A DNA stretch of 32,000 nucleotides from Leptolyngbya sp. PCC 6406 (GCF_000332095.2 NZ_KI913949.1:1379169-1411168), one strand, 5' to 3'. Counted from the stretch's first letter, positions 16,883-29,596 are shown. The notes: a model not told the origin generated them from the sequence alone. Made by a program: numbers and translations.

Positions 16883-16992
16883 TAGCGATTTAGCAAACAA
16901 CAATGGTCAAGACAAACAGGGATTAGGGATCTGCGGCTTAATAGCGTACCAAGTAGCCCGGTTGCGACTCCGCTCAACCTTCAGTGATCGAG

Positions 16993-17114
16993 GGCTGAGC
17001 GAAGTCGTTCTCTTCCGCTGGCTGAGCGGAGTCGTTCGCTTTAGCGTCTCCCGAAGGGAGAAAGCCAGCGTCTCCCGAAAGGAGAAAGCCAGCGTCTCCC
17101 GAAGGGAGAAAGCC
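16993..17114 (+). repeat. tandem repeats: 2 x ~26 bp (GGCTGAGCGRAGTCGTTC...) then 3 x 24 bp (AGCGTCTCCCGAAGGGAGAAAGCC)
   Basis: The 24-mers lie at 17043-17066, 17067-17090 and 17091-17114. The middle copy has one substitution. Each contains a TCTCCC/GGGAGA hairpin. They lie in the divergent region between the kinase and the small helical-protein gene. Confidence 0.85.
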
Positions 17115-17347
17115 CGATCAACGGGCACCTTATTTTTCTGCGATTTCCTCAAGGCTAGATTACCCATTTGCATTGCGCTCAGCAACATCGAACGCTGGTC
17201 TCCCCCCAGAATTGGGGGGACTAAGGGGGGCGATACAGCATTTGGAGGCAGCAATCGAGATGGGTGCCGAAGTTAGGCGAATACGCACTGAGGAGCCCTA
17301 TGGCCGGGAGAGTGAGTAAAAGGCTACTTTAGAGGGGATTTTGCCCC

Positions 17348-17809
17348 ATGCTGAGCCATCCCCTAGCCATGAGCGACCCCTTAACCGCCAGTGTGATTGC
17401 CTCTATTGCCTTTAAGGCTTTTTTAGAAGCGGGGGCAGGCGAAGCGGCTAAAGCCCTCACCGGGGCGGCCACCAAGGCGGCGGCAGAAAAGCTGAATGCC
17501 CTGCGGAAAACCATTTGGCAAAAGCTCCGGGGCAATCCCTCAGCGGAGACCTCGATCAAAGCCCTAGCGGAGCAGCGGGGCAGCGAAGCGGACTTGCAGA
17601 AGGTGGAAAGCTATTTGCAGGTGGCGATGGTGGAGGATCCCCAGTTTGCCGCTTCGGTGCAGCAATTGGCCCAGGAGATTACCCTGCTGCAAATTGATGA
17701 CGACAGCACCATGACCCAGGTCAACTACGGCGGCACCAATTACCAGACCAAAACCGGCCCCAATAACACCAATTTCTTTGGCGGCGAGCATCGTCATGGG
17801 GGAGCATGA
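17348..17809 (+). CDS. small helical protein with Ala/Gly-rich N-terminus and C-terminal G/N/Q/Y-rich motif (candidate Bell-like effector with amyloid-signalling motif)
   Basis: The N-terminus is MSDPLTASVIASIAFKAFLEAGAGEAAKALTGAATKAAAEKL. The C-terminus TQVNYGGTNYQTKTGPNNTNFFGGEHRHGG matches the N-terminus of the next protein at 20 of 30 positions. The TGA stop overlaps the next ATG (ATGA at 17806-17809). An alternative ATG lies at 17369. Confidence 0.7.
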   Translation: MLSHPLAMSDPLTASVIASIAFKAFLEAGAGEAAKALTGAATKAAAEKLNALRKTIWQKLRGNPSAETSIKALAEQRGSEADLQKVESYLQVAMVEDPQFAASVQQLAQEITLLQIDDDSTMTQVNYGGTNYQTKTGPNNTNFFGGEHRHGGA

Positions 17810-20436
17810 GCACCCAAACCAACCAGGGCGGTGAAAACTACCAAGTCACCACCGGCCCCCACAACACCAATTACTTCGGCGGTACCCATTACCACGGACA
17901 ACCCATGCCCTCCCCCCAGGGCACGCCCAACACCCTCAAGCCCAGCGGTGCCCTGGCCTTTGTGGGGCGAGAAGATGCCCTGGCCAACCTGGCGGCTCAA
18001 CTCCAGGGCAGCGGGCCGCTGCTGATTACGGCGCTGAAGGGGATGGGGGGCATTGGTAAATCGGAATTGGCCCTGCGCTATGCCCTGGCCAACCTGGCGG
18101 CGGGCACCTACCCGGATGGCATTCTCTGGATTGAGGGGCGGGGGGTGGACCTGGGTACCCAAATTGTGACCTTTGCCCAGGCCCAACTGGGGCTGACCCC
18201 ACCGGACAACCTAGACCTGGCGGGGCAGGTGGCCTATTGCTGGCGACACTGGCCCCCGCAGCAGGACGCACCAGGGCGGGTGCTGGTGGTGTTTGACGAT
18301 GTGACGGACTACGCCGCCCTGCGCCCCTACCTGCCCCCCACGGAGGATCGCTACCGGGTGGTGCTGACCTCGCGGCGGCGGTTTGGCCCCTCGGTGACGA
18401 CCCTGGAACTGGATGTACTGGATCTGGAGCCCGCCCTGGCCCTGCTGGGGTCGCTGGCGGGGCAGGAGCGCATCGAGGCGGTGCGGACTGAGGCAGAGGC
18501 ACTGGTGGAGTGGCTGGGGCGGCTACCCCTGGCGCTGGAACTGGTGGGGCGCTACCTGGCCAACCAGCCAGACCTGGACCTGCCGACGCTGCAACGCCGC
18601 CTGGAGGCGCAGACGGTGCGGGCAAGATCGCTGCTGAAGCCAGAGGAGGACGACAGCTACGGCGACATGACCGCCCAACTGGGGGTGGCGGCGGCCTTTG
18701 AGTTGAGTGTGGCGGAACTGACGGCGGCCCAGGGGGAACTGGCCTATGGCCTGAGTTTGTTTGGCAATGGGGCGATGCCGTGGGAACTGGTGTCGCCCTG
18801 CCTGCCGGAGGCGGATGAGGAGGCGATGGAAGCGGGGCGCAGTGCCCTGGTGAACCGCAGCCTGCTGAAGCGGGTGGAAGCGGGGCTGTATCAAATGCAC
18901 CCGCTGATTCGGGAGTTTGTGCGGCTGTGGGGGCCGGAGACGCTGGCGGCGGCGCAGGTGGAGGAGCTGAAGCGGCGCTACTGCGAGGGGATGGTGGCGG
19001 TGGCGCAGCAGATCCCCGATACCCCGACCCGTGGGCAGATTGCGGCGGTGGCGGCGGCGGTGCCCCATATTGCTGAGGCGGCAACAACATGGCAAGGTTG
19101 GCTGACTGACGAAGATGCCATCTGGCCGTTTGTGGGTCTAGGCCGCTTCTATCAGGGCCAAGGACTCTACAGCGCAGCGGAACCCTGGCGTACCCGCTGT
19201 TTGTCTTTCGCCAGAGAAAAATTCGGCGACGAGCATCCCGATGTGGCCTCCAGTTTCAATAATCTGGCGGGACTTTACCGTTCTCAGGGGCGCTACAGCG
19301 AGGCGGAACCCCTGTATCAACAAGCCCTGGCCTTGAGGCAAAAATTGCTCGGCGACGAGCATCCCGATGTGGCCTCCAGTTTCAATAATCTGGCGGCACT
19401 TTACGACTCTCAGGGGCGCTACAGCGAAGCGGAACCGCTCTATCAACAAGCCCTGGCCTTGATGCAAAAATTGCTCGGCGACGAGCATCCCGATGTGGCC
19501 ACCAGTTTCAATAATCTGGCGTACCTTTACCGTTCTCAGGGGCGCTACAGCGAAGCGGAACCCCTGTATCAACAAGCCCTGGCCTTGAGGCAAAAATTGC
19601 TCGGCGACGAGCATCCCGATGTGGCCTCCAGTTTCAATAATCTGGCGTACCTTTACGACTCTCAGGGGCGCTACAGCGAAGCGGAACCGCTGTATCAACA
19701 AGCCCTGGCCTTGAGGCAAAAATTGCTCGGCGACGAGCATCCCGATGTCGCCTCCAGTTTCAATAATCTGGCGGCACTTTACGACTCTCAGGGGCGCTAC
19801 AGCGAGGCGGAACCGCTCTATCAACAAGCCCTGGCCTTGAGGCAAAAATTGCTCGGCGACGAGCATCCCGATGTGGCCACCAGTTTCAATAATCTGGCGT
19901 ACCTTTACGAATCTCAGGGGCGCTACAGCGAAGCGGAACCGCTCTTGCAACAAGCCCTGGCCTTGATGCAAAAATTGCTCGGCGACGAGCATCCCGATGT
20001 CGCCTCCAGTTTCAATAATCTGGCGGCACTTTACGACTCTCAGGGGCGCTACAGCGAAGCGGAACCGCTCTTGCAACAAGCCCTGGCCTTGAGGCAAAAA
20101 TTGCTCGGCGACGAGCATCCCGATGTGGCCTCCAGTTTCAATAATCTGGCGTACCTTTACGAATCTCAGGGGCGCTACACCGAGGCGGAACCCCTATATC
20201 AACAAGCCCTGGCCTTGAGGCAAAAATTGCTCGGTGACGAGCATCCCGATGTGGCCGCCAGTTTCAATAATCTGGGCATGTTGCGGTTTAGCCAAGGGCG
20301 CTACAGCGAGGCGGCAACGTATTTGGAGCGGGCGCTGGTGTTAATTGAACGGCTGCTGGGGCCGGACCATCCCAACACTCAGACCATGCGGGCAAATCTT
20401 GATTTTGTGCGGCAAAAGGTTGCCCAGTCAGCGTAG
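17806..20436 (+). CDS. NB-ARC (STAND P-loop NTPase) protein with C-terminal TPR array and N-terminal G/N/Q/Y-rich motif (bacterial NLR-like)
   Basis: Walker A is GMGGIGKSELA (from 18040) and Walker B is VLVVFDDV. VVLTSRR and the GLPLA-type motif GRLPLALELVG are also present. About 10 TPR units of 42 aa follow (EHPDVASSFNNLAxLYxSQGRYSEAEPLYQQALALRQKLLGD). The N-terminus is TQTNQGGENYQVTTGPHNTNYFGGTHYHGQ. Confidence 0.9.
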   Translation: MSTQTNQGGENYQVTTGPHNTNYFGGTHYHGQPMPSPQGTPNTLKPSGALAFVGREDALANLAAQLQGSGPLLITALKGMGGIGKSELALRYALANLAAGTYPDGILWIEGRGVDLGTQIVTFAQAQLGLTPPDNLDLAGQVAYCWRHWPPQQDAPGRVLVVFDDVTDYAALRPYLPPTEDRYRVVLTSRRRFGPSVTTLELDVLDLEPALALLGSLAGQERIEAVRTEAEALVEWLGRLPLALELVGRYLANQPDLDLPTLQRRLEAQTVRARSLLKPEEDDSYGDMTAQLGVAAAFELSVAELTAAQGELAYGLSLFGNGAMPWELVSPCLPEADEEAMEAGRSALVNRSLLKRVEAGLYQMHPLIREFVRLWGPETLAAAQVEELKRRYCEGMVAVAQQIPDTPTRGQIAAVAAAVPHIAEAATTWQGWLTDEDAIWPFVGLGRFYQGQGLYSAAEPWRTRCLSFAREKFGDEHPDVASSFNNLAGLYRSQGRYSEAEPLYQQALALRQKLLGDEHPDVASSFNNLAALYDSQGRYSEAEPLYQQALALMQKLLGDEHPDVATSFNNLAYLYRSQGRYSEAEPLYQQALALRQKLLGDEHPDVASSFNNLAYLYDSQGRYSEAEPLYQQALALRQKLLGDEHPDVASSFNNLAALYDSQGRYSEAEPLYQQALALRQKLLGDEHPDVATSFNNLAYLYESQGRYSEAEPLLQQALALMQKLLGDEHPDVASSFNNLAALYDSQGRYSEAEPLLQQALALRQKLLGDEHPDVASSFNNLAYLYESQGRYTEAEPLYQQALALRQKLLGDEHPDVAASFNNLGMLRFSQGRYSEAATYLERALVLIERLLGPDHPNTQTMRANLDFVRQKVAQSA
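19231..20238 (+). repeat. 8 x 126-bp near-identical in-frame tandem repeats (TPR units) inside the NB-ARC/TPR gene
   Basis: Each unit begins GAGCATCCCGATGT. The start positions 19231 + n*126 were verified through 20239. A ninth, diverged unit and a partial cap follow. Confidence 0.9.
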
Positions 20437-20453
20437 GGTGGGCAATGCCCACC
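20437..20453. repeat. palindromic GGTGGGCA-N-TGCCCACC element directly after the NLR stop codon
   Basis: The palindrome starts at 20437 and TAGGGTGGGCAATGCCCACC begins with the TAG stop (20434-20436). An inverted partner GGTGGGCAGTGCCCACCCTAC lies at 20591-20611. Related copies occur at 9411-9425 and inside the CDS at 28373-28461. It is hairpin-capable and might terminate transcription, but there is no U-run. Confidence 0.6.
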
Positions 20454-20620
20454 GTTGATCAGCATCTCTTAGCAAAAGCCGTGTGTCCCACCGCTGCCCC
20501 CCCGCGCCGGAATGGTATTCCGCCGCCCATCCCAACCGTCCTCTTTAAGAGGGCTCGCGATCAGAGCACTCCCGATCCTTCGATCAGGTTGGTGGGCAGT
20601 GCCCACCCTACTTAAAGCAC

Positions 20621-20820
20621 TTGTTACACACGACTTGGAAGGTTATGTCTTGAAACAAGCTGAAAAGCTTGCTACGTCGTTGTCTCCATACAAACATCCA
20701 GTTCCCTGAGCGGAGTCGAAGGGAACGGCCAGAACCCGGTGGTGTGGCTGGCTTCGACTCCGCTCAGCCAGCGGTCAACGGGCTCGATTCTCCGTAACCT
20801 TCCAAGTCGTGTGTTACACA
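20621..20820. repeat. nested-palindrome MITE-like element (~200 bp)
   Basis: The outer 20-bp perfect inverted repeat is ACACACGACTTGGAAGGTTA (20626-20645) with its complement at 20795-20814. The inner 16-bp perfect inverted repeat is CTGAGCGGAGTCGAAG (20706-20721) with CTTCGACTCCGCTCAG (20752-20767). Confidence 0.7.
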
Positions 20821-21029: not shown

Positions 21030-21136
21030 TTACGGTTGCCAGTCTACGGGCTCCTCAAAGATGTCTGCCTCAGAGAAAGGGCAAGATTGAGGAAGTTGTT
21101 TGGGATCGAGGGGCGTTTCTTGACCTACAAGGTTTA
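21030..21136 (-). pseudogene. displaced 3' fragment of the DUF29 gene interrupted by the IS
   Basis: Removing 21137-22047 and one TTA copy joins codon 112 of the DUF29 ORF in frame to NLVGQETPLDPKQLPQSCPFSEADIFEEPVDWQP-stop (TAA at 21030-21032). A 9-bp stem hairpin follows at 21005-21025. Confidence 0.7.
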
Positions 21137-22047
21137 GAGGGTGTCTGAGAAGTAGAAAGGCCCTCAAAAACGCTACTCTATCAGTCAGTAAGTACACTTG
21201 ATAGGGTTTTTGAGGGCAATGCGATTATCCTACCCCACCGATTTGACTGATGAACAATGGGATATTCTCTCTCTCTTGATTCCTCCGGCGAAGCCTGGTG
21301 GACGACCTCGGAGCACGGATATGCGAGAAGTGGTCAATGCGATTCTGTACGTTCTGGACAATAGCACCAAGTGGCGGTGCTTACCCCATGATTTCCCGAA
21401 GGCCAAAACGGTCTACCATTATTTTCGCCAATGGCGCAATGATGGGGTGTGGGAACACATCAATCACCGATTGCGGGAGTTGGTGCGGTTAACGGAGGGG
21501 CGCGAAGCGTCTCCCAGTGCAGCGGTGATGGATAGTCAGTCGGTGAACAGCGATGTCTACATTTCGGAGTCGGTCGGCTTCGATGCAAACAAAAAGGTCA
21601 AAGGTCGGAAGCGAAACGTGGTGGTCGACACAATGGGTTTAGTGCTGATGGTTGTGGTTACCGCAGCGAGTCTCCCTGAGCGGGATGGCGCACGAAAGGT
21701 GCTAGAAAAAATGCATCAGGTTAGTCAGTGGTTCACTCGCCTGTGTGTCATTTGGGTTGATGGGGGATATAGCGGTAACGATTTCATGAAAGAGATCATG
21801 GACCGCTTTCGATGGGTGATTGAGGTGATCAAGCGCCCCGACTGTGCGCAGGGATTTGTGCTGTTACCCAAGCGGTGGGTGGTGGAGCGCACATTTGGCT
21901 GGTTTACTTTTTGCCGCCGCTTGAGTAAAGACTATGAGCGCCTACCAGAGACCGCTGAGGCATGGATTTATGTGGCCAATATTCGAGTCATGTTAAGGCG
22001 ACTAACGTGCTAATTCATACCTACATTCCAGCTTTTCAGACACCCTC
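21137..22047 (+). mobile_element. IS5-family insertion sequence (IS1031-like group), 911 bp, intact
   Basis: Terminal inverted repeats are GAGGGTGTCTGAGAAG (left) and CTTTTCAGACACCCTC (right). A 3-bp direct duplication TTA lies at 21134-21136 and 22048-22050. A single transposase ORF fills the element. Confidence 0.85.
21219..22013 (+). CDS. IS5 family transposase (DUF4096 N-terminal region plus DDE domain)
   Basis: MRLSYPTDLTDEQWDILSLLIPPAKPGGRPRSTDMREVVNAILYVL...WRCLPHDFP...TVYHYFRQWRNDGVW is the typical IS5/IS4-like N-terminus. DDE-region motifs include MDSQSV, VDTMGL and WVDGGYSG. ATG 21219 was chosen over the listed TTG 21198. Confidence 0.9.
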   Translation: MRLSYPTDLTDEQWDILSLLIPPAKPGGRPRSTDMREVVNAILYVLDNSTKWRCLPHDFPKAKTVYHYFRQWRNDGVWEHINHRLRELVRLTEGREASPSAAVMDSQSVNSDVYISESVGFDANKKVKGRKRNVVVDTMGLVLMVVVTAASLPERDGARKVLEKMHQVSQWFTRLCVIWVDGGYSGNDFMKEIMDRFRWVIEVIKRPDCAQGFVLLPKRWVVERTFGWFTFCRRLSKDYERLPETAEAWIYVANIRVMLRRLTC

Positions 22048-22384
22048 TTAGACCATATCGATAGCTTTTACCAATCGCTTCGCTCAGATAGGGTTTCAAG
22101 CTAGGGTTTTCTGCCAAGTGGTCTTGTATCCGCTCCCGCTGCTCTCTAATGGTATAGACCCAACTCTTCGATCTCGCCTCTGGCTGGTAATACCACTTGA
22201 GGAGGTGCCCCAGCAACACCCCTAATCGGTTGCGTAACTCTTGCCGTTGTTGTTTGCCCAACGATTCAATCTCCTCGACCAGATTCTCGATATCGAGTTC
22301 CCCGAATCGACCAGAGCGCAGTAGCTTTGTTTGCTGCTGAGTCCAAGCGTAAAAGTCTTGGTCGTAGAGCGTAGTGGTTTGCAT
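22010..22384 (-). CDS. DUF29 family protein, C-terminally truncated and altered by the IS insertion (likely nonfunctional)
   Basis: The N-terminus LYDQDFYAWTQQQTKLLRSGRFGELDIENLVEEIESLGKQQRQELRNRLGVLLGHLLKWYYQP is a textbook DUF29. From codon 113 (position 22048) the ORF reads into the IS inverted repeat, giving RGCLKSWNVGMN-stop. Confidence 0.8.
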   Translation of the reverse strand: MQTTTLYDQDFYAWTQQQTKLLRSGRFGELDIENLVEEIESLGKQQRQELRNRLGVLLGHLLKWYYQPEARSKSWVYTIREQRERIQDHLAENPSLKPYLSEAIGKSYRYGLRGCLKSWNVGMN

Positions 22385-24025: not shown

Positions 24026-24138
24026 CGTAGGGGCGCGGTTTCCGCGCCCGATGTAGGATGCCGCTGTAGGGGCGCGGGGATTAGCGCCCTCTGTAGGGAC
24101 TGTGGCGAAATCGTTATTTTTCTCCTGTGGAGGTGTTT

Positions 24139-26094
24139 ATGTTGTACTGGTTGACCTTTATTCAATCCTTGCCTACTCTGCCTGCGTCGGTGTCTTGGCA
24201 AAATCAGGGCGCGGAATCTCAGCCGGAATCTCAGGCGGAATCTCAGGCGGAGAGGGTGGCGCTGGTGGAGACGGTGCCGGGGGGAATTGCGCCGACGGTG
24301 GGGCAGTTGGGCGGGCTGGGGGTGCTGGCTTCCAGCGGGGTGGTTACCTTTGTGGTGCTGCTGTTGGCGGCGGTGTGGGCCTACACGCGGGTCTATGTGA
24401 TCACGCCCACGAACGAGGCATTTGTGAAAACGGGCGGGGTCATCCGCAAGCGCAAGAAGGTGATTCTCAACGGCGGCTGTGTGGTGCTGCCGGGGTTCCA
24501 TGAGTTGACGCGGGTGCCTCTGCGGGAAATGTCCATTGATGTGGAACGCACGGGAAAGCTGGCGGTACGGACCCAGGATTATCTGCGGGCGGATATGCGG
24601 GCAACGTTCTATGTCTGCATCAATGCCTCGGAAGATGATGTCCTGACCTCTGCGGCCCGCCTTTCACGGGATGGCAAAATTACGCCGGAAGACATTAAGA
24701 ATGCCCTGGAAAAGCGGGCGGATGATGGCTTGCGGGCGGCGGCGAAGACCAAGACTCTGGCGGAAATTGATTCGGACAAGCTGGGATTTGCTCAGGAGGT
24801 GCTGAACCTGATCGAGCCGGATCTGAAGAAGGTGGGGCTGACTCTGAATAATCTGGCGATTTCGGAGATTGAGGAAAGCGATACCTACGACACCAACAAC
24901 TTTTTTGACGCCCAGGGGGTGCGGCTACGGACGGAAACGATTCAGCGCTCAATCCAGCAAAAGCGGGAGGTGGAGCTGACGACGCGGGTCGCTATTGAGC
25001 AAAAGGAATTGGATGCGGAGAAGCGATCGCTGGAAATTACCCGCGATCAGGAGGATGCCAAACTGGCCCAGGTTCTGGAAATTGAGTCTTTGAAGGCAGA
25101 GCGCGAACGGGCTATTCAGGAAAAGCGCGATCGCGAAGCAGCCACCGCCCAACGCACCAAGATTTTGCAAGAGAAGTCGGTGGAGGAGGAAGAAATTCAG
25201 CGCAAGCTGAGTGTCCAACAGGCCCAAATCCAGGCGGATATTGAACTAGAGGAACAGCAAAAAGTCTTGAAGGTAGCCCAGGCCCGCCAGCAAGAAGAGG
25301 CGGAAGTCGCGGAAGTCCAGCGCCAAAAATCCGTCGATGCCTCCCAATACAAGGCACTGGTAGAACTAGCGGAGGCAGAGCGGGAGTCGAAGGTGGCCCA
25401 GCAGGATGCGGCGATCGCGATCGCGGAGCGAGAACGGAACCGATTCCAGACCGAGGCAGAACGCGCCCAGGCCCAAGCCAAGGTCCAGACCGCCACCGCC
25501 GTAGAAGAGGCAGAACGGCAACAACGCCTTGCCATCATCGCCGCAGAACAGGACGCCCAAGAGCGCCGCATTGCCGACCAAAACGTAGTAGAGATCGACG
25601 TATTCCGCAAGCGGCGACAGGCAGAAATTGCCCGCCAGACCTCAGAACTAGAGGCAGAGGCCATCCGTACCCTGGCCCAGGCAGAACTCGATCGCGCCCT
25701 CGCCGAAGCCCAAGGTACTGAGGCCAAAATTCAAGCCCGTAATGTCATCAGCAACGCCAACCTCACCGCCGATGTCATTGCCCAAATCTGGCCCGAGCTA
25801 GCGGATCGACTGCCGGAGGTACTGCGCGCCCTCGCTCCCCAACCGGGGGTCATCGGCGATGCCCGGATCTACGCCTTTCCTGGTGCTGGAGAGAATGGCC
25901 ATGGAGCCGGGGACATCAACAAGCTCATGCTTTCCACCAGCGGCCTTGCCCTGATCAATAGCCTGCTCGAAGATGGCAAACTTGGGAGCGTCCTCGGGCA
26001 GGTGAGCCAACTCATTCGGGGCGGTGGCGACAACGGAGCGCCCCCCAGCAGCCCTAATGCCCCGGAGATTACAGAGGAAGATTCCCTCTTCTAA
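24139..26094 (+). CDS. flotillin family protein (SPFH/Band 7 domain, YqiK-like) with long Glu/Ala/Gln-rich coiled coil
   Basis: An N-terminal TM segment is followed by YVITPTNEAFVKTGG...VILNGGCVVLPGFHELTRVPLREMSIDV...LAVRTQDYLRADMRATFYVCIN (SPFH). About 300 aa of heptad-like EA-rich sequence follow. ATG 24139 has GGAGG 5 nt upstream; the listed 24127 start is GTG. Confidence 0.85.
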   Translation: MLYWLTFIQSLPTLPASVSWQNQGAESQPESQAESQAERVALVETVPGGIAPTVGQLGGLGVLASSGVVTFVVLLLAAVWAYTRVYVITPTNEAFVKTGGVIRKRKKVILNGGCVVLPGFHELTRVPLREMSIDVERTGKLAVRTQDYLRADMRATFYVCINASEDDVLTSAARLSRDGKITPEDIKNALEKRADDGLRAAAKTKTLAEIDSDKLGFAQEVLNLIEPDLKKVGLTLNNLAISEIEESDTYDTNNFFDAQGVRLRTETIQRSIQQKREVELTTRVAIEQKELDAEKRSLEITRDQEDAKLAQVLEIESLKAERERAIQEKRDREAATAQRTKILQEKSVEEEEIQRKLSVQQAQIQADIELEEQQKVLKVAQARQQEEAEVAEVQRQKSVDASQYKALVELAEAERESKVAQQDAAIAIAERERNRFQTEAERAQAQAKVQTATAVEEAERQQRLAIIAAEQDAQERRIADQNVVEIDVFRKRRQAEIARQTSELEAEAIRTLAQAELDRALAEAQGTEAKIQARNVISNANLTADVIAQIWPELADRLPEVLRALAPQPGVIGDARIYAFPGAGENGHGAGDINKLMLSTSGLALINSLLEDGKLGSVLGQVSQLIRGGGDNGAPPSSPNAPEITEEDSLF

Positions 26095-27466: not shown

Positions 27467-29596
27467 CTACGGAAGAGGCCACGAGGAGACACAGACAACC
27501 CGAAAACCGATGATGTAGTTCTGGTTATCGCGCGTGCCCCAGTTGCGATTGGCCGAGCGGCAGTACCTGGGATCGTCGTACCACGAACCGCCCCGCAGCA
27601 GCCGATTTTCATTCTCGTTAGAGGATAACCAAGCACTGCCATCGGTGGGAGCACCTTCGTAGCTGCCGTGCCAGGGGTCTTGGCACCATTCCCACACGTT
27701 GCCGTGCATGTCATAGAGACCAAAGGCGTTGGGGGGAAAGCTACCCACGTCTAGGGTCTTTTGGCGATAGGTGCCTTTGGGGCCATTGCCATAGGGGTAG
27801 TTGCCATCGTAGTTGGCTAAATCAGGGGTGATGGTGTCGCCGCAGTGAAAGGGGGTTTCGGTGCCAGCCCGACAGGCGTATTCCCATTCGGCTTCACTGG
27901 GCAGGCGGTAGTCGTGGCCGCTGTGGCGGGTGAGACGATCGCAGAATTCCACTGCGTCATACCAAGACACGCGCTCTACCGGGCAATTGTTCCCTTTGAC
28001 ATGGGCAGGATCGGGCTTGAGATCGGTCTTGACCTTAGGCAATCCGGCTACCGCTCGCCACTGGGCTTGGGTGATGGCATATTTCCCCAGCCAGAAGCCG
28101 GGAACCTGAACCCGATGGCGGGGCTTCTCATCGCCATAACCCTCCCCATCTGGGGAACCCATCCAGAACTCCCCTGGAGGGATCTTGACCAGATCTAGGG
28201 GCACTTCCCCTGGCAGGGTCTCTCGGCGATATTCAGCCCGATGTTGTTCTCGGCTCGTTAGGACTCTGGGCGATCCGAGCCCCAATAATTTCCGCTCAAC
28301 TCCCGTGATCTTCAGCACACTGAACTCAAATGTAGGGAAGGTCTCAGGGGCAGTGGAGGGTGTTGTGGGGATGGTGGGCGGTGCCCACCCTACGGGGGCA
28401 GCGTTGGTGTTGGGGGACGATCCCTCCGGGATGGGGGGCGATGCTGCCCACCCTACGGGGGCGGGGGGCGGCGCTGCGGGGGTGGGTTTGAGGTTGAGGC
28501 GTTGGGTGAGGGCTTGTTCGATTTTGGTGGCATCGGCTGACCCCAGACCTAGGTTGAGGCGGATTTCCGCCAGCCGCCGCTGGTTACGCTCTGTGGGTAG
28601 GTAGCCATTTTTAGCTGCCATTTGAAAGTACTTGGCGTACTCACGGCGCTGACTGGCCCGTTTTTGATAGGGGGCTTGCACTTGGGCCTCGATGGCGGCG
28701 GCGGCTTCGCGGGTTAAGCCTAGCCGTTGGCGTCGCGTTTCTAAGATGCCGCGATCCAGATCGTCCTCAATGGTGCCATTGAAGTCGAGGTCTAGCTCTG
28801 CATCCAGTTCCTGAAAGATGTCATCCACCGCCTTGCGATATTCCTGCTCGGCATCCAGTTTGGGTGCCCGCACCAGGGGCAGATCAAATCCGGTATCCTC
28901 AGCCAGGATTTTGGGGAGATAGCCGCCTTTGCGCTCGATTTCGAAGCGGCGCTCGGCGTGGTTGTGGAGATCGCGCACCAAGATCCAATCGCCATGGCCG
29001 GGGTAGGCGGCTCCTTCCATCCCTTCAACTAGGTAGCGAGTATAGAGGGAGAGGCCGTCTTTTTCTTGCAGGGCGATGTTGGTGGCGCTGGAGGAGGCTA
29101 AAATCACCCGCCCCTTGGCCTTTAGTTCGCCAAAGTCGATGGGGGTGTCTCCCTTTTTGAGTAGATCTGCGATCGCGCCACTGTAGCAACAGTCCAAAAT
29201 CACCACAATCCGTTGGCTCCGACTCAGCTCCATTCGCCGCTGGAGAAAGGTAGCGGAAACGGCGCTGGATTCCACCAAGCGCCCTTGGGGCTTTTGGCTG
29301 CTGCGGGTGCAGAAATGCAGTTGGGGAGACAAAATGCCCCCACTGCCCAAGTCGCCATGGCCAGAGAAATACAACAGCAGCAAATCCTCTGACTGTCCCC
29401 GTTGAAAAAATTGCTCCAGGTGGGTGCGGAAGGTCTCACTGTCGCAATTCTCCAGAGAGGTGACATCGAAGGCACCCCCCTCTGGGTCCGACAGCACACG
29501 GGTCATGGCCTGCACGTCCAGCACGCTCCCCGGCAGGGGCTCGAAGCCCTCGCCGTAGTCACTCACCCCCACCAGCAATGCCCGCCGCTCACCCAT
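27467..29596 (-). CDS. orthocaspase (peptidase C14 p20-like domain) fused to a C-terminal FGE-sulfatase (SUMF1-like) domain
   Basis: The N-terminus RALLVGVSDYGEGFEPLPGSVLDVQAM...LLLLYFSGHGDLG carries the catalytic His. VVILDCCYSGA carries the catalytic Cys. The C-terminus has PPGEFWMGSP...EKPRHRVQVPGFWLGKYAITQAQW...VERVSWYDAVEFCDRL...YRLPSEAEWEYACRAGT...GLYDMHGNVWEWCQD...LLRGGSWYD...RSANRN, the standard FGE-sulfatase motifs. Confidence 0.9.
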   Translation of the reverse strand: MGERRALLVGVSDYGEGFEPLPGSVLDVQAMTRVLSDPEGGAFDVTSLENCDSETFRTHLEQFFQRGQSEDLLLLYFSGHGDLGSGGILSPQLHFCTRSSQKPQGRLVESSAVSATFLQRRMELSRSQRIVVILDCCYSGAIADLLKKGDTPIDFGELKAKGRVILASSSATNIALQEKDGLSLYTRYLVEGMEGAAYPGHGDWILVRDLHNHAERRFEIERKGGYLPKILAEDTGFDLPLVRAPKLDAEQEYRKAVDDIFQELDAELDLDFNGTIEDDLDRGILETRRQRLGLTREAAAAIEAQVQAPYQKRASQRREYAKYFQMAAKNGYLPTERNQRRLAEIRLNLGLGSADATKIEQALTQRLNLKPTPAAPPPAPVGWAASPPIPEGSSPNTNAAPVGWAPPTIPTTPSTAPETFPTFEFSVLKITGVERKLLGLGSPRVLTSREQHRAEYRRETLPGEVPLDLVKIPPGEFWMGSPDGEGYGDEKPRHRVQVPGFWLGKYAITQAQWRAVAGLPKVKTDLKPDPAHVKGNNCPVERVSWYDAVEFCDRLTRHSGHDYRLPSEAEWEYACRAGTETPFHCGDTITPDLANYDGNYPYGNGPKGTYRQKTLDVGSFPPNAFGLYDMHGNVWEWCQDPWHGSYEGAPTDGSAWLSSNENENRLLRGGSWYDDPRYCRSANRNWGTRDNQNYIIGFRVVCVSSWPLP

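Follow-up and report, generated by a model that had tools for sequence, protein, structure and literature searches.

A pair of overlapping genes in the genome of Leptolyngbya sp. PCC 6406, at positions 17,348 to 20,436 of the 32,000-nucleotide stretch NZ_KI913949.1:1379169-1411168 (GCF_000332095.2; this whole stretch is called the window below), is in our reading a two-gene NOD-like receptor (NLR)/Bell amyloid-signalling cell-death module, to which we give a probability of roughly 0.8. The upstream gene, open reading frame (ORF) A, is predicted to encode a small effector with a Bell-like helical domain, and the downstream one, ORF B, an NLR-like NTPase of the signal transduction ATPases with numerous domains (STAND) class; the two products carry a similar tag of about 30 residues, C-terminal in A and N-terminal in B. 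Sequence comparison establishes the architecture, the homology and the conservation of the tagged pair. The parts of the module are as follows:

17348-17809, plus strand: ORF A, putative small Bell-domain/BASS effector of 153 aa (146 aa if read from the second ATG at 17369)
17369-17695, plus strand: Bell-like helical domain of about 109 aa (profile search, AlphaFold2 (AF2) model and hydropathy)
17711-17803, plus strand: effector-side motif MTQVNYGGTNYQTKTGPNNTNFFGGEHRHGG (BLASTP, homologue alignment and AF2)
17806-17809, plus strand: ATGA in which the stop codon of A and the start codon of B overlap
17806-20436, plus strand: ORF B, NLR-like STAND NTPase of 876 aa
17812-17901, plus strand: receptor-side motif TQTNQGGENYQVTTGPHNTNYFGGTHYHGQ, residues 3-32 of B
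17971-18897, plus strand: NB-ARC nucleotide-binding/oligomerisation module (Pfam residues 56-254, extended to the MHP at 364)
19222-20433, plus strand: TPR sensor array of ten 42-aa units (Pfam TPR_12/TPR_10)

A preliminary description of this DNA had claimed an ORF pair joined by an ATGA overlap, a motif of about 30 residues common to the end of A and the start of B, and a likeness of the two copies visible even in the DNA. All of this is borne out. The genes are co-oriented on the plus strand, with no terminator-like site between them, and no sigma-70-like promoter was found upstream of the pair. The C-terminus of A reads TQVNYGGTNYQTKTGPNNTNFFGGEHRHGGA and the N-terminus of B MSTQTNQGGENYQVTTGPHNTNYFGGTHYHGQ: the last 30 residues of A align without gaps to residues 3-32 of B with 20/29 identities (E=1e-12 in a single, composition-adjusted BLASTP comparison), and 60 of the 90 nucleotides encoding the tags are identical. 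Because only 16/30 third positions match and the same codon is used at 12/20 shared tag residues, against 8.7 expected from codon usage, the likeness is evidently one kept at the protein level, of which recent duplication or gene conversion is not the source. Both proteins have exact matches in public records of Leptolyngbya sp. PCC 6406 (Leptolyngbyaceae), A as the 'hypothetical protein' WP_008314040.1 and B as the 'tetratricopeptide repeat protein' WP_225886441.1. As to the start of A, a GAGGGG stands 9 nt before the first ATG at 17348; homologues, however, begin at the position of the second Met (MSDP..., 17369), and since they start M-x-[DE]-P there, the second ATG is likely the true start despite the GAGGGG.

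Whether relatives keep a matching pair of motifs, a check proposed in the preliminary description, was examined in eight GTDB genome loci and eleven further loci fetched for single homologues: in 15 of the 15 loci with enough DNA (12 of them non-redundant) a STAND protein with the motif in its first ~35 residues is encoded beside the small gene. Metagenomic loci agree, in that a pattern scan of metagenomes returned 29 loci, of which the genuine ones are all Bell C-termini or STAND N-termini, with tagged pairs among them. The STAND gene is usually directly downstream of the small gene, with gaps of -4 to ~+170 bp, and most of the STAND partners are NB-ARC/TPR proteins, the sensor arrays differing among them. 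These relatives come from Nodosilinea, Stenomitos, Cyanosarcina and metagenome-assembled genomes of Leptolyngbyaceae; the genera are, like Leptolyngbya, filamentous in habit. In Stenomitos rutilans (locus L005, 1264-9144) two different STAND receptors of 1223 aa, both N-terminally tagged, flank one Bell gene: the one carries NB-ARC and a C-terminal region other than TPR, mTOR_dom being its sole further Pfam match, and the other has an nSTAND5-like NTPase that scores below the curated cut-off. Apart from the small gene and the STAND gene, no gene is constant across loci; because the flanking genes change from locus to locus, with toxin-antitoxin genes near some, the data suggest that the pair is a mobile two-gene module. 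Two loci depart from the usual layout. In L039 (1033-1686) a Bell gene carrying a hybrid motif ends at a stop codon, after which an NB-ARC ORF that itself lacks a motif follows in frame; a stop codon may have split a fused gene here, the sequence may contain an error, or the stop may be read through. In L003 (3295-3906) a Bell gene bearing the motif loses its 3' end after ...NTNFFGGTH, where the unrelated RIIFHFTPKHCSWLNQI takes its place; here we suspect a mobile-element insertion that truncated the tag.

No model in Pfam, NCBIfam or PADLOC matches ORF A. Its close homologues (78-82) are all ~140-150 aa long, and most of them have M-x-[D/E]-P at the start and a hydrophobic helix after it, the observed starts including MEP, MTDP and MPEP. 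The N-terminus of A, MSDPLTASVIASIAF, likewise joins an acidic position 2-3 to a hydrophobic helix in the manner of the 'MEPIS'-type element reported for Bell, Hell and Bab and for certain antiphage NLRs. Read from the second Met it becomes MSDPLTASVIASIAFKAFL, with the Kyte-Doolittle maximum at residues 5-19; the most hydrophobic window of the protein, LTASVIASIAFKAFL, lies in helix 1, after MSDP. A profile of the helical part of A only, with the motif removed (A4), was searched against 1.84 billion representative proteins and recovered 537 at E<=1e-3 and 261 at E<=1e-10. Among these are proteins whose tails are listed for cyanobacterial Bell proteins in Table S2 of Dyrka et al., namely BASS9 (MTQNNYD.A.GWQTKVEGGTAYI), BASS8 (..Y.NYGRDQINI..) and BASS7 (..NNTFNF) tails, as well as a Cyanothece PCC 7822-type motif (EVWNVIGKAEKN; EVWNVIGKAEKNxFTDNKAPIIKD) to which that table gives no BASS family; the matches bearing such motifs have E-values of 1e-16 to 1e-35. 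Assigned in this way, through the Table S2 motif strings on A4 matches and not through reference Bell sequences, the helical domain of A is predicted to be homologous to Bell domains. AF2 models it as a helical bundle composed of helix 1, then a one-turn helix, then four more long ones (mean predicted local distance difference test score, pLDDT, of 75.7 for the domain alone), with the motif region disordered in the monomer (pLDDT < 50).

In longer A4 matches the domain is found N-terminally on NB-ARC/TPR, TIR, CHAT/TRADD-N/TIR and GUN4 proteins. Bell domains at the N-terminus of proteins with NLR architecture, and BASS motifs on TIR2 and CHAT effectors, were described earlier (Dyrka et al., 10.1101/2020.01.06.895854). 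Single chains such as P0190 (967 aa), with Bell, BASS9-type motif and NB-ARC/TPR, and P0113 (617 aa), with Bell, BASS9-type motif, CHAT, TRADD-N and TIR, retain the amyloid motif although effector and receptor are fused. A further architecture, seen in P0112, P0129 and P0143 (355-393 aa), fuses a Bell-like N-terminal domain to a GUN4-like porphyrin-binding domain; to our knowledge it has not been described before.

The complete NB-ARC signature and TPR array that the preliminary description ascribed to B are recovered by Pfam, which places NB-ARC at residues 56-254 (E=4e-9) and TPR_12/TPR_10 in ten units, and the signature motifs are present: GMGGIGKS (Walker A) at 79, VLVVFDD (Walker B) at 159, VLTSR at 186, GRLPLA (GxP) at 238 and MHP at 364. 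The nearest solved relative of this module is the nucleotide-binding oligomerisation domain (NOD) of Streptomyces AfsR (8k60/8jke; E=2e-17). TPR units 1-8 have a mean DNA identity of 94%, with the multi-nucleotide replacements clustered at codons 17 (Y/A/G) and 20 (D/R/E). Given TPR geometry, positions three residues apart, as these are, should share one face of the first helix, and the array fits a fast-evolving recognition surface. Where ORF B encodes the NOD (18000-19000), the G+C content rises to 0.69 versus ~0.50-0.55 in neighbour genes, a sign perhaps that the gene is foreign or has an unusual composition of its own. An older annotation of B (797 aa, UPI000482A180) starts at M80, inside Walker A, and is without the N-terminal tag; because that record lacked the tag, the mis-set start may explain why the pair is absent from the 2020 screen of Dyrka et al.

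The tag follows the consensus M-T-Q-x-N-Y-G-G-T-N-Y-Q-T-K-T-G-x-N-N-T-N-F-F-G-G-x-H-x-H. G, N, T, aromatic residues and His abound in it, aliphatic residues are scarce, and its last residues are a conserved GGxHxH. Effector copies hardly vary and receptor copies vary more, part of the effector-side invariance being ascertainment, since the first homologue search used shared 5-mers; looser variants of the motif appeared in the domain-only search (P0105, P0131, P0146). Throughout, the motif is much more conserved than the adjoining domain. An internal pseudo-repeat, as in HET-s, does not rise above shuffles. The named families in use are BASS1-10 plus BASS11, and a literature search found no BASS12 or higher; likewise, no exact fragment of the tag occurs in Table S2 of Dyrka et al. 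or in the 8 million full texts searched. By this comparison the tag constitutes an unnamed motif family distinct from all the named BASS families.

Its closest named counterpart appears to be BASS9 (nlr_20, e.g. MTQNNYDNARGWQTKVEGGTAYI). The two motifs are of similar length and have in common the flanks ...DNSSMTQxN... and ...HxHG and a central [WY]QTK, whereas the core differs (GGTNYQTKTGxNNTNFFGG in the tag versus DNAxGWQTKVEGGTAYIG in BASS9), with compensating one-residue indels. A hidden Markov model (HMM) of published BASS9 (nlr_20) sequences gives no significant score to either tag: the effector copy reaches 4.0 bits (23/2000 shuffles as high) and, with the same-source HMM, the receptor copy -0.8 bits (557/2000 shuffles as high). 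In hhalign, the tag matches a longer BASS9-type alignment with 93% probability (E=2.9e-7) over 35 columns, some of them from the shared linker that precedes the motif. There are also natural hybrids (P0090, L028, L039) that join the first half of BASS9 to the second half of the tag; a short-motif profile search of a 5.8-billion protein index returned 8 fragments, informative for the hybrids only. Because of the hhalign match, the coinciding flanks and central [WY]QTK and the hybrids, the evidence points to the tag family being a sister of BASS9.

Motifs and death domains have not travelled together. Bell domains with the tag are up to 74% identical to BASS9-bearing ones (P0010/P0091; P0069/P0139), while some bearers of the tag have Bell domains only 14-20% identical to each other, the tag on them being almost the same, and this spread across and within motif types argues that motif and death domain have recombined repeatedly. 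We tentatively raise the idea, which we regard as more doubtful than not by some distance, that the unnamed family acts as an 'address code', in which the identity of the motif, and not that of the death domain, sets which receptor fires which executioner. Were this true, repeated motif swaps would insulate parallel NLR-to-Bell pathways from cross-activation, and the GGxHxH at the end of the motif could make the switch responsive to metal or pH.

The preliminary description had identified the locus as a Bell-domain/BASS plus NLR pair, and every feature that can be checked in the sequence agrees with this. The closest parallels are such pairs described in filamentous members of the Actinobacteria and Cyanobacteria (Dyrka et al. 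2020, 10.1101/2020.01.06.895854). Like the PCC 6406 pair, these consist of a ~140-150 aa protein with a ~100 aa helical Bell domain, an acidic residue 2-3 and a hydrophobic helix 1, whose G/N/Q-rich C-terminal motif is repeated N-terminally on an adjacent collinear NB-ARC/TPR gene; the hosts are multicellular or filamentous prokaryotes, here a filamentous cyanobacterium, and in both cases several non-redundant pairs of genes carry the same pair of motifs. Gene overlap, seen in 42% of the published pairs, is also typical (Dyrka et al., 10.1101/2020.01.06.895854). The PCC 6406 pair differs from them in that its tag falls outside BASS1-10. The Bab/Agp system of E. coli (BASS11), experimentally shown to act by abortive infection (Ibarlosa et al. 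2024, 10.1101/2024.11.07.622273), resembles it in having adjacent genes with a common terminal motif, a small helical effector and a 'MEPIS'-type N-terminal helix. It differs in the sensor (TPR-GreA/B-C-PIN versus NB-ARC/TPR), in the effector domain (Babybell of ~80 aa versus ~109 aa in A) and in the motif family. Fungal HET-S/NWD2 has the same placement of the motif, N-terminal in the receptor and C-terminal in the effector, with the genes again adjacent; yet HET-S has a HeLo domain and two pseudo-repeats, against a single motif copy and no HeLo match in A, and the NWD2 receptor is NACHT/WD in contrast to the NB-ARC/TPR of B. The TPR repeats of B are nevertheless comparable to the sensors of fungal NLRs, of which near-identical repeats with few hypervariable positions are a trait: they too are highly alike, with variation at few positions.

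By analogy with HET-S/NWD2 and E. coli Bab/Agp, we infer the following mechanism. The TPR array of B would bind a ligand, which is probably a cue from phage or another non-self source, upon which the NB-ARC module of B would oligomerise and the N-terminal tags thus clustered would take up a cooperative cross-beta fold. This fold would then template the like tag on the Bell protein A, and the refolding of that tag is predicted to free helix 1 of the Bell domain, which would insert into the membrane and bring about cell death, in the form of either abortive infection or regulated cell death.

Several points weigh against this interpretation. Amyloid formation, cross-seeding, toxicity, membrane targeting and a role in phage defence are predictions that go beyond the architecture. 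The tag is without the V/I-rich hydrophobic pattern described for BASS motifs. The covariation of effector and receptor motifs, which the preliminary description had put forward as a further check, was not seen: cognate tags share 18.9 and non-cognate tags 18.5 of 29 positions on average (permutation p=0.11 for 15 pairs and 0.09 for 12 pairs). Thus, conservation of the pair is what the comparison supports and pair-specific covariation was not detected, as the near-invariance of the effector-side motif would explain. On the structural side, two AF2 models compared by Foldseek with the PDB gave no significant match (best E=0.8), and since no solved relative emerged, a structural tie of A to HeLo, MLKL or Bab is not demonstrated; a PDB sequence search with the Bell profile likewise returned nothing below E=0.045, and A has no Pfam match to HeLo, Helo-like, MLKL or RPW8 domains. 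According to the literature, the likeness among these membrane-targeting helical domains is nearly confined to helix 1. In PADLOC, no model of antiphage STAND systems (Avs, bNACHT) or of any other defence system matched the pair, the only matches being a generic TPR model and PDC-M71B, and to judge by the ten neighbour proteins scanned the window is not an obvious defence island.

The alternative that comes closest to these data retains the pairing of A and B and changes the nature of the contact: the tag might mediate a specific non-amyloid interaction that tethers or releases the Bell protein without prion-like templating, be it by beta-strand augmentation, by a small hetero-oligomeric beta structure or by metal-bridged pairing via the terminal HxH. 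Such a defined docking interface would suit a near-invariant effector copy facing a variable receptor copy, and the unusual scarcity of aliphatic residues and the conserved GGxHxH end speak for it as well. We nonetheless consider it unlikely, because in G/N/Q/T-rich composition, length, placement at the two termini and disorder in the monomer the tag matches the BASS motifs, of which BASS1, BASS3 and BASS11 formed fibrils when assayed, because it is related to BASS9, and because one effector is common to two receptors in L005.

Much further from the evidence is the reading of B as an FxSxx-COOH or cyclophane protein of the ribosomally synthesised and post-translationally modified peptide (RiPP) type, akin to FxsT or HaaT, with A as a precursor or accessory peptide. 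It arises from the NCBIfam model NF040586 (FxSxx_TPR), which matches B with 384.3 bits against a cut-off of 300, and from HaaT and AfsR models, which match below their cut-offs. The NF040586 match, however, covers the generic NB-ARC+TPR body (residues 51-647). An FxSxx-COOH system comprises an FxSxx-COOH peptide and a radical-SAM/SPASM maturase; yet 0/10 neighbour proteins scanned match radical-SAM/SPASM, no FxSxx-ending ORF lies near the pair (the sole match, a segment of 44 residues at the window's far end, is spurious) and the related loci have no conserved third gene. As these partner genes are lacking, the FxSxx/RiPP identity is rejected as very improbable. The probability shrinks almost to nothing for the notion that the genes are mere neighbours and the tag likeness a functionless by-product of local duplication or low complexity. 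Both tag segments are indeed compositionally biased (G, N, T), but the E-value of the tag alignment is composition-adjusted, the motif is on both partners in all the loci across genera with third codon positions divergent, and it is far more conserved than the domain it adjoins; chance or duplication is excluded by these comparative data. The amyloid-signalling module is the preferred account of the pair.

Several repeats surround the pair. The 14-mer GCTGAGCGGAGTCG (<=1 mismatch) has 5 copies in the window versus 0.25 expected, all of them in the two intergenic regions that flank the pair (16965-17034 and 20705-20768); it may be a small dispersed repeat or the remnant of a miniature inverted-repeat transposable element (MITE) bracketing the module. 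Upstream of ORF A, the 24-bp unit AGCGTCTCCCGAAGGGAGAAAGCC, which contains a hairpin, stands in three tandem copies at 17043-17114, and a terminator-like stem comes next at 17112-17126. Nested inverted repeats occupy 20433-20818, just downstream of B, in a MITE-like arrangement with arms of 21 nt (20433-20453 / 20591-20611), 24 nt (20622-20645 / 20795-20818) and 16 nt (20706-20721 / 20752-20767). Further on lies an IS4/IS5-family insertion sequence (21136-22048) with 17-nt inverted repeats at its ends (21136-21152 / 22032-22048) and a transposase ORF at 21198-22013 (DUF4096 + DDE_Tnp_1). Within 10 kb of the pair are encoded a fusion of a Peptidase_C14 caspase domain to an FGE-sulfatase domain (27467-29596, minus strand) and an SPFH/flotillin protein (24127-26094, plus strand). 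Rfam and tRNA scans of the window returned nothing.

The architecture itself is already described for cyanobacteria, and the concept is unchanged by this pair. The novelty is limited to an unnamed motif related to BASS9, the effector copy of which is strikingly conserved, to evidence that motifs and domains have been swapped, and to a previously unannotated example. So far, the one bacterial amyloid-signalling system demonstrated in vivo is the Bab/Agp pair of E. coli, which is not NLR-based, and the NLR/Bell pairs of filamentous bacteria are known from bioinformatic predictions and heterologous prion assays. The preliminary description's statement that nothing cyanobacterial had been tested is thus only partly right, as the BASS3 motif of Nostoc punctiforme had been assayed as a prion-forming domain in Podospora (10.1101/2020.01.06.895854). 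Against this background the PCC 6406 pair offers a clean, compact example, with overlapping genes, a complete NB-ARC module and a regular TPR array with two hypervariable positions. With its tag the motif catalogue gains an unnamed sister of BASS9, and the history of its annotation illustrates how screens that rely on annotation can miss such pairs when a start codon is wrongly set. The motif family is well populated, its effector copy is conserved enough for the direct design of peptides and beta-breaker mutants, and the natural BASS9/tag hybrids and swaps could be used for probing the specificity of amyloid templating. The pair is thus a good experimental candidate for NLR-driven amyloid signalling in bacteria.

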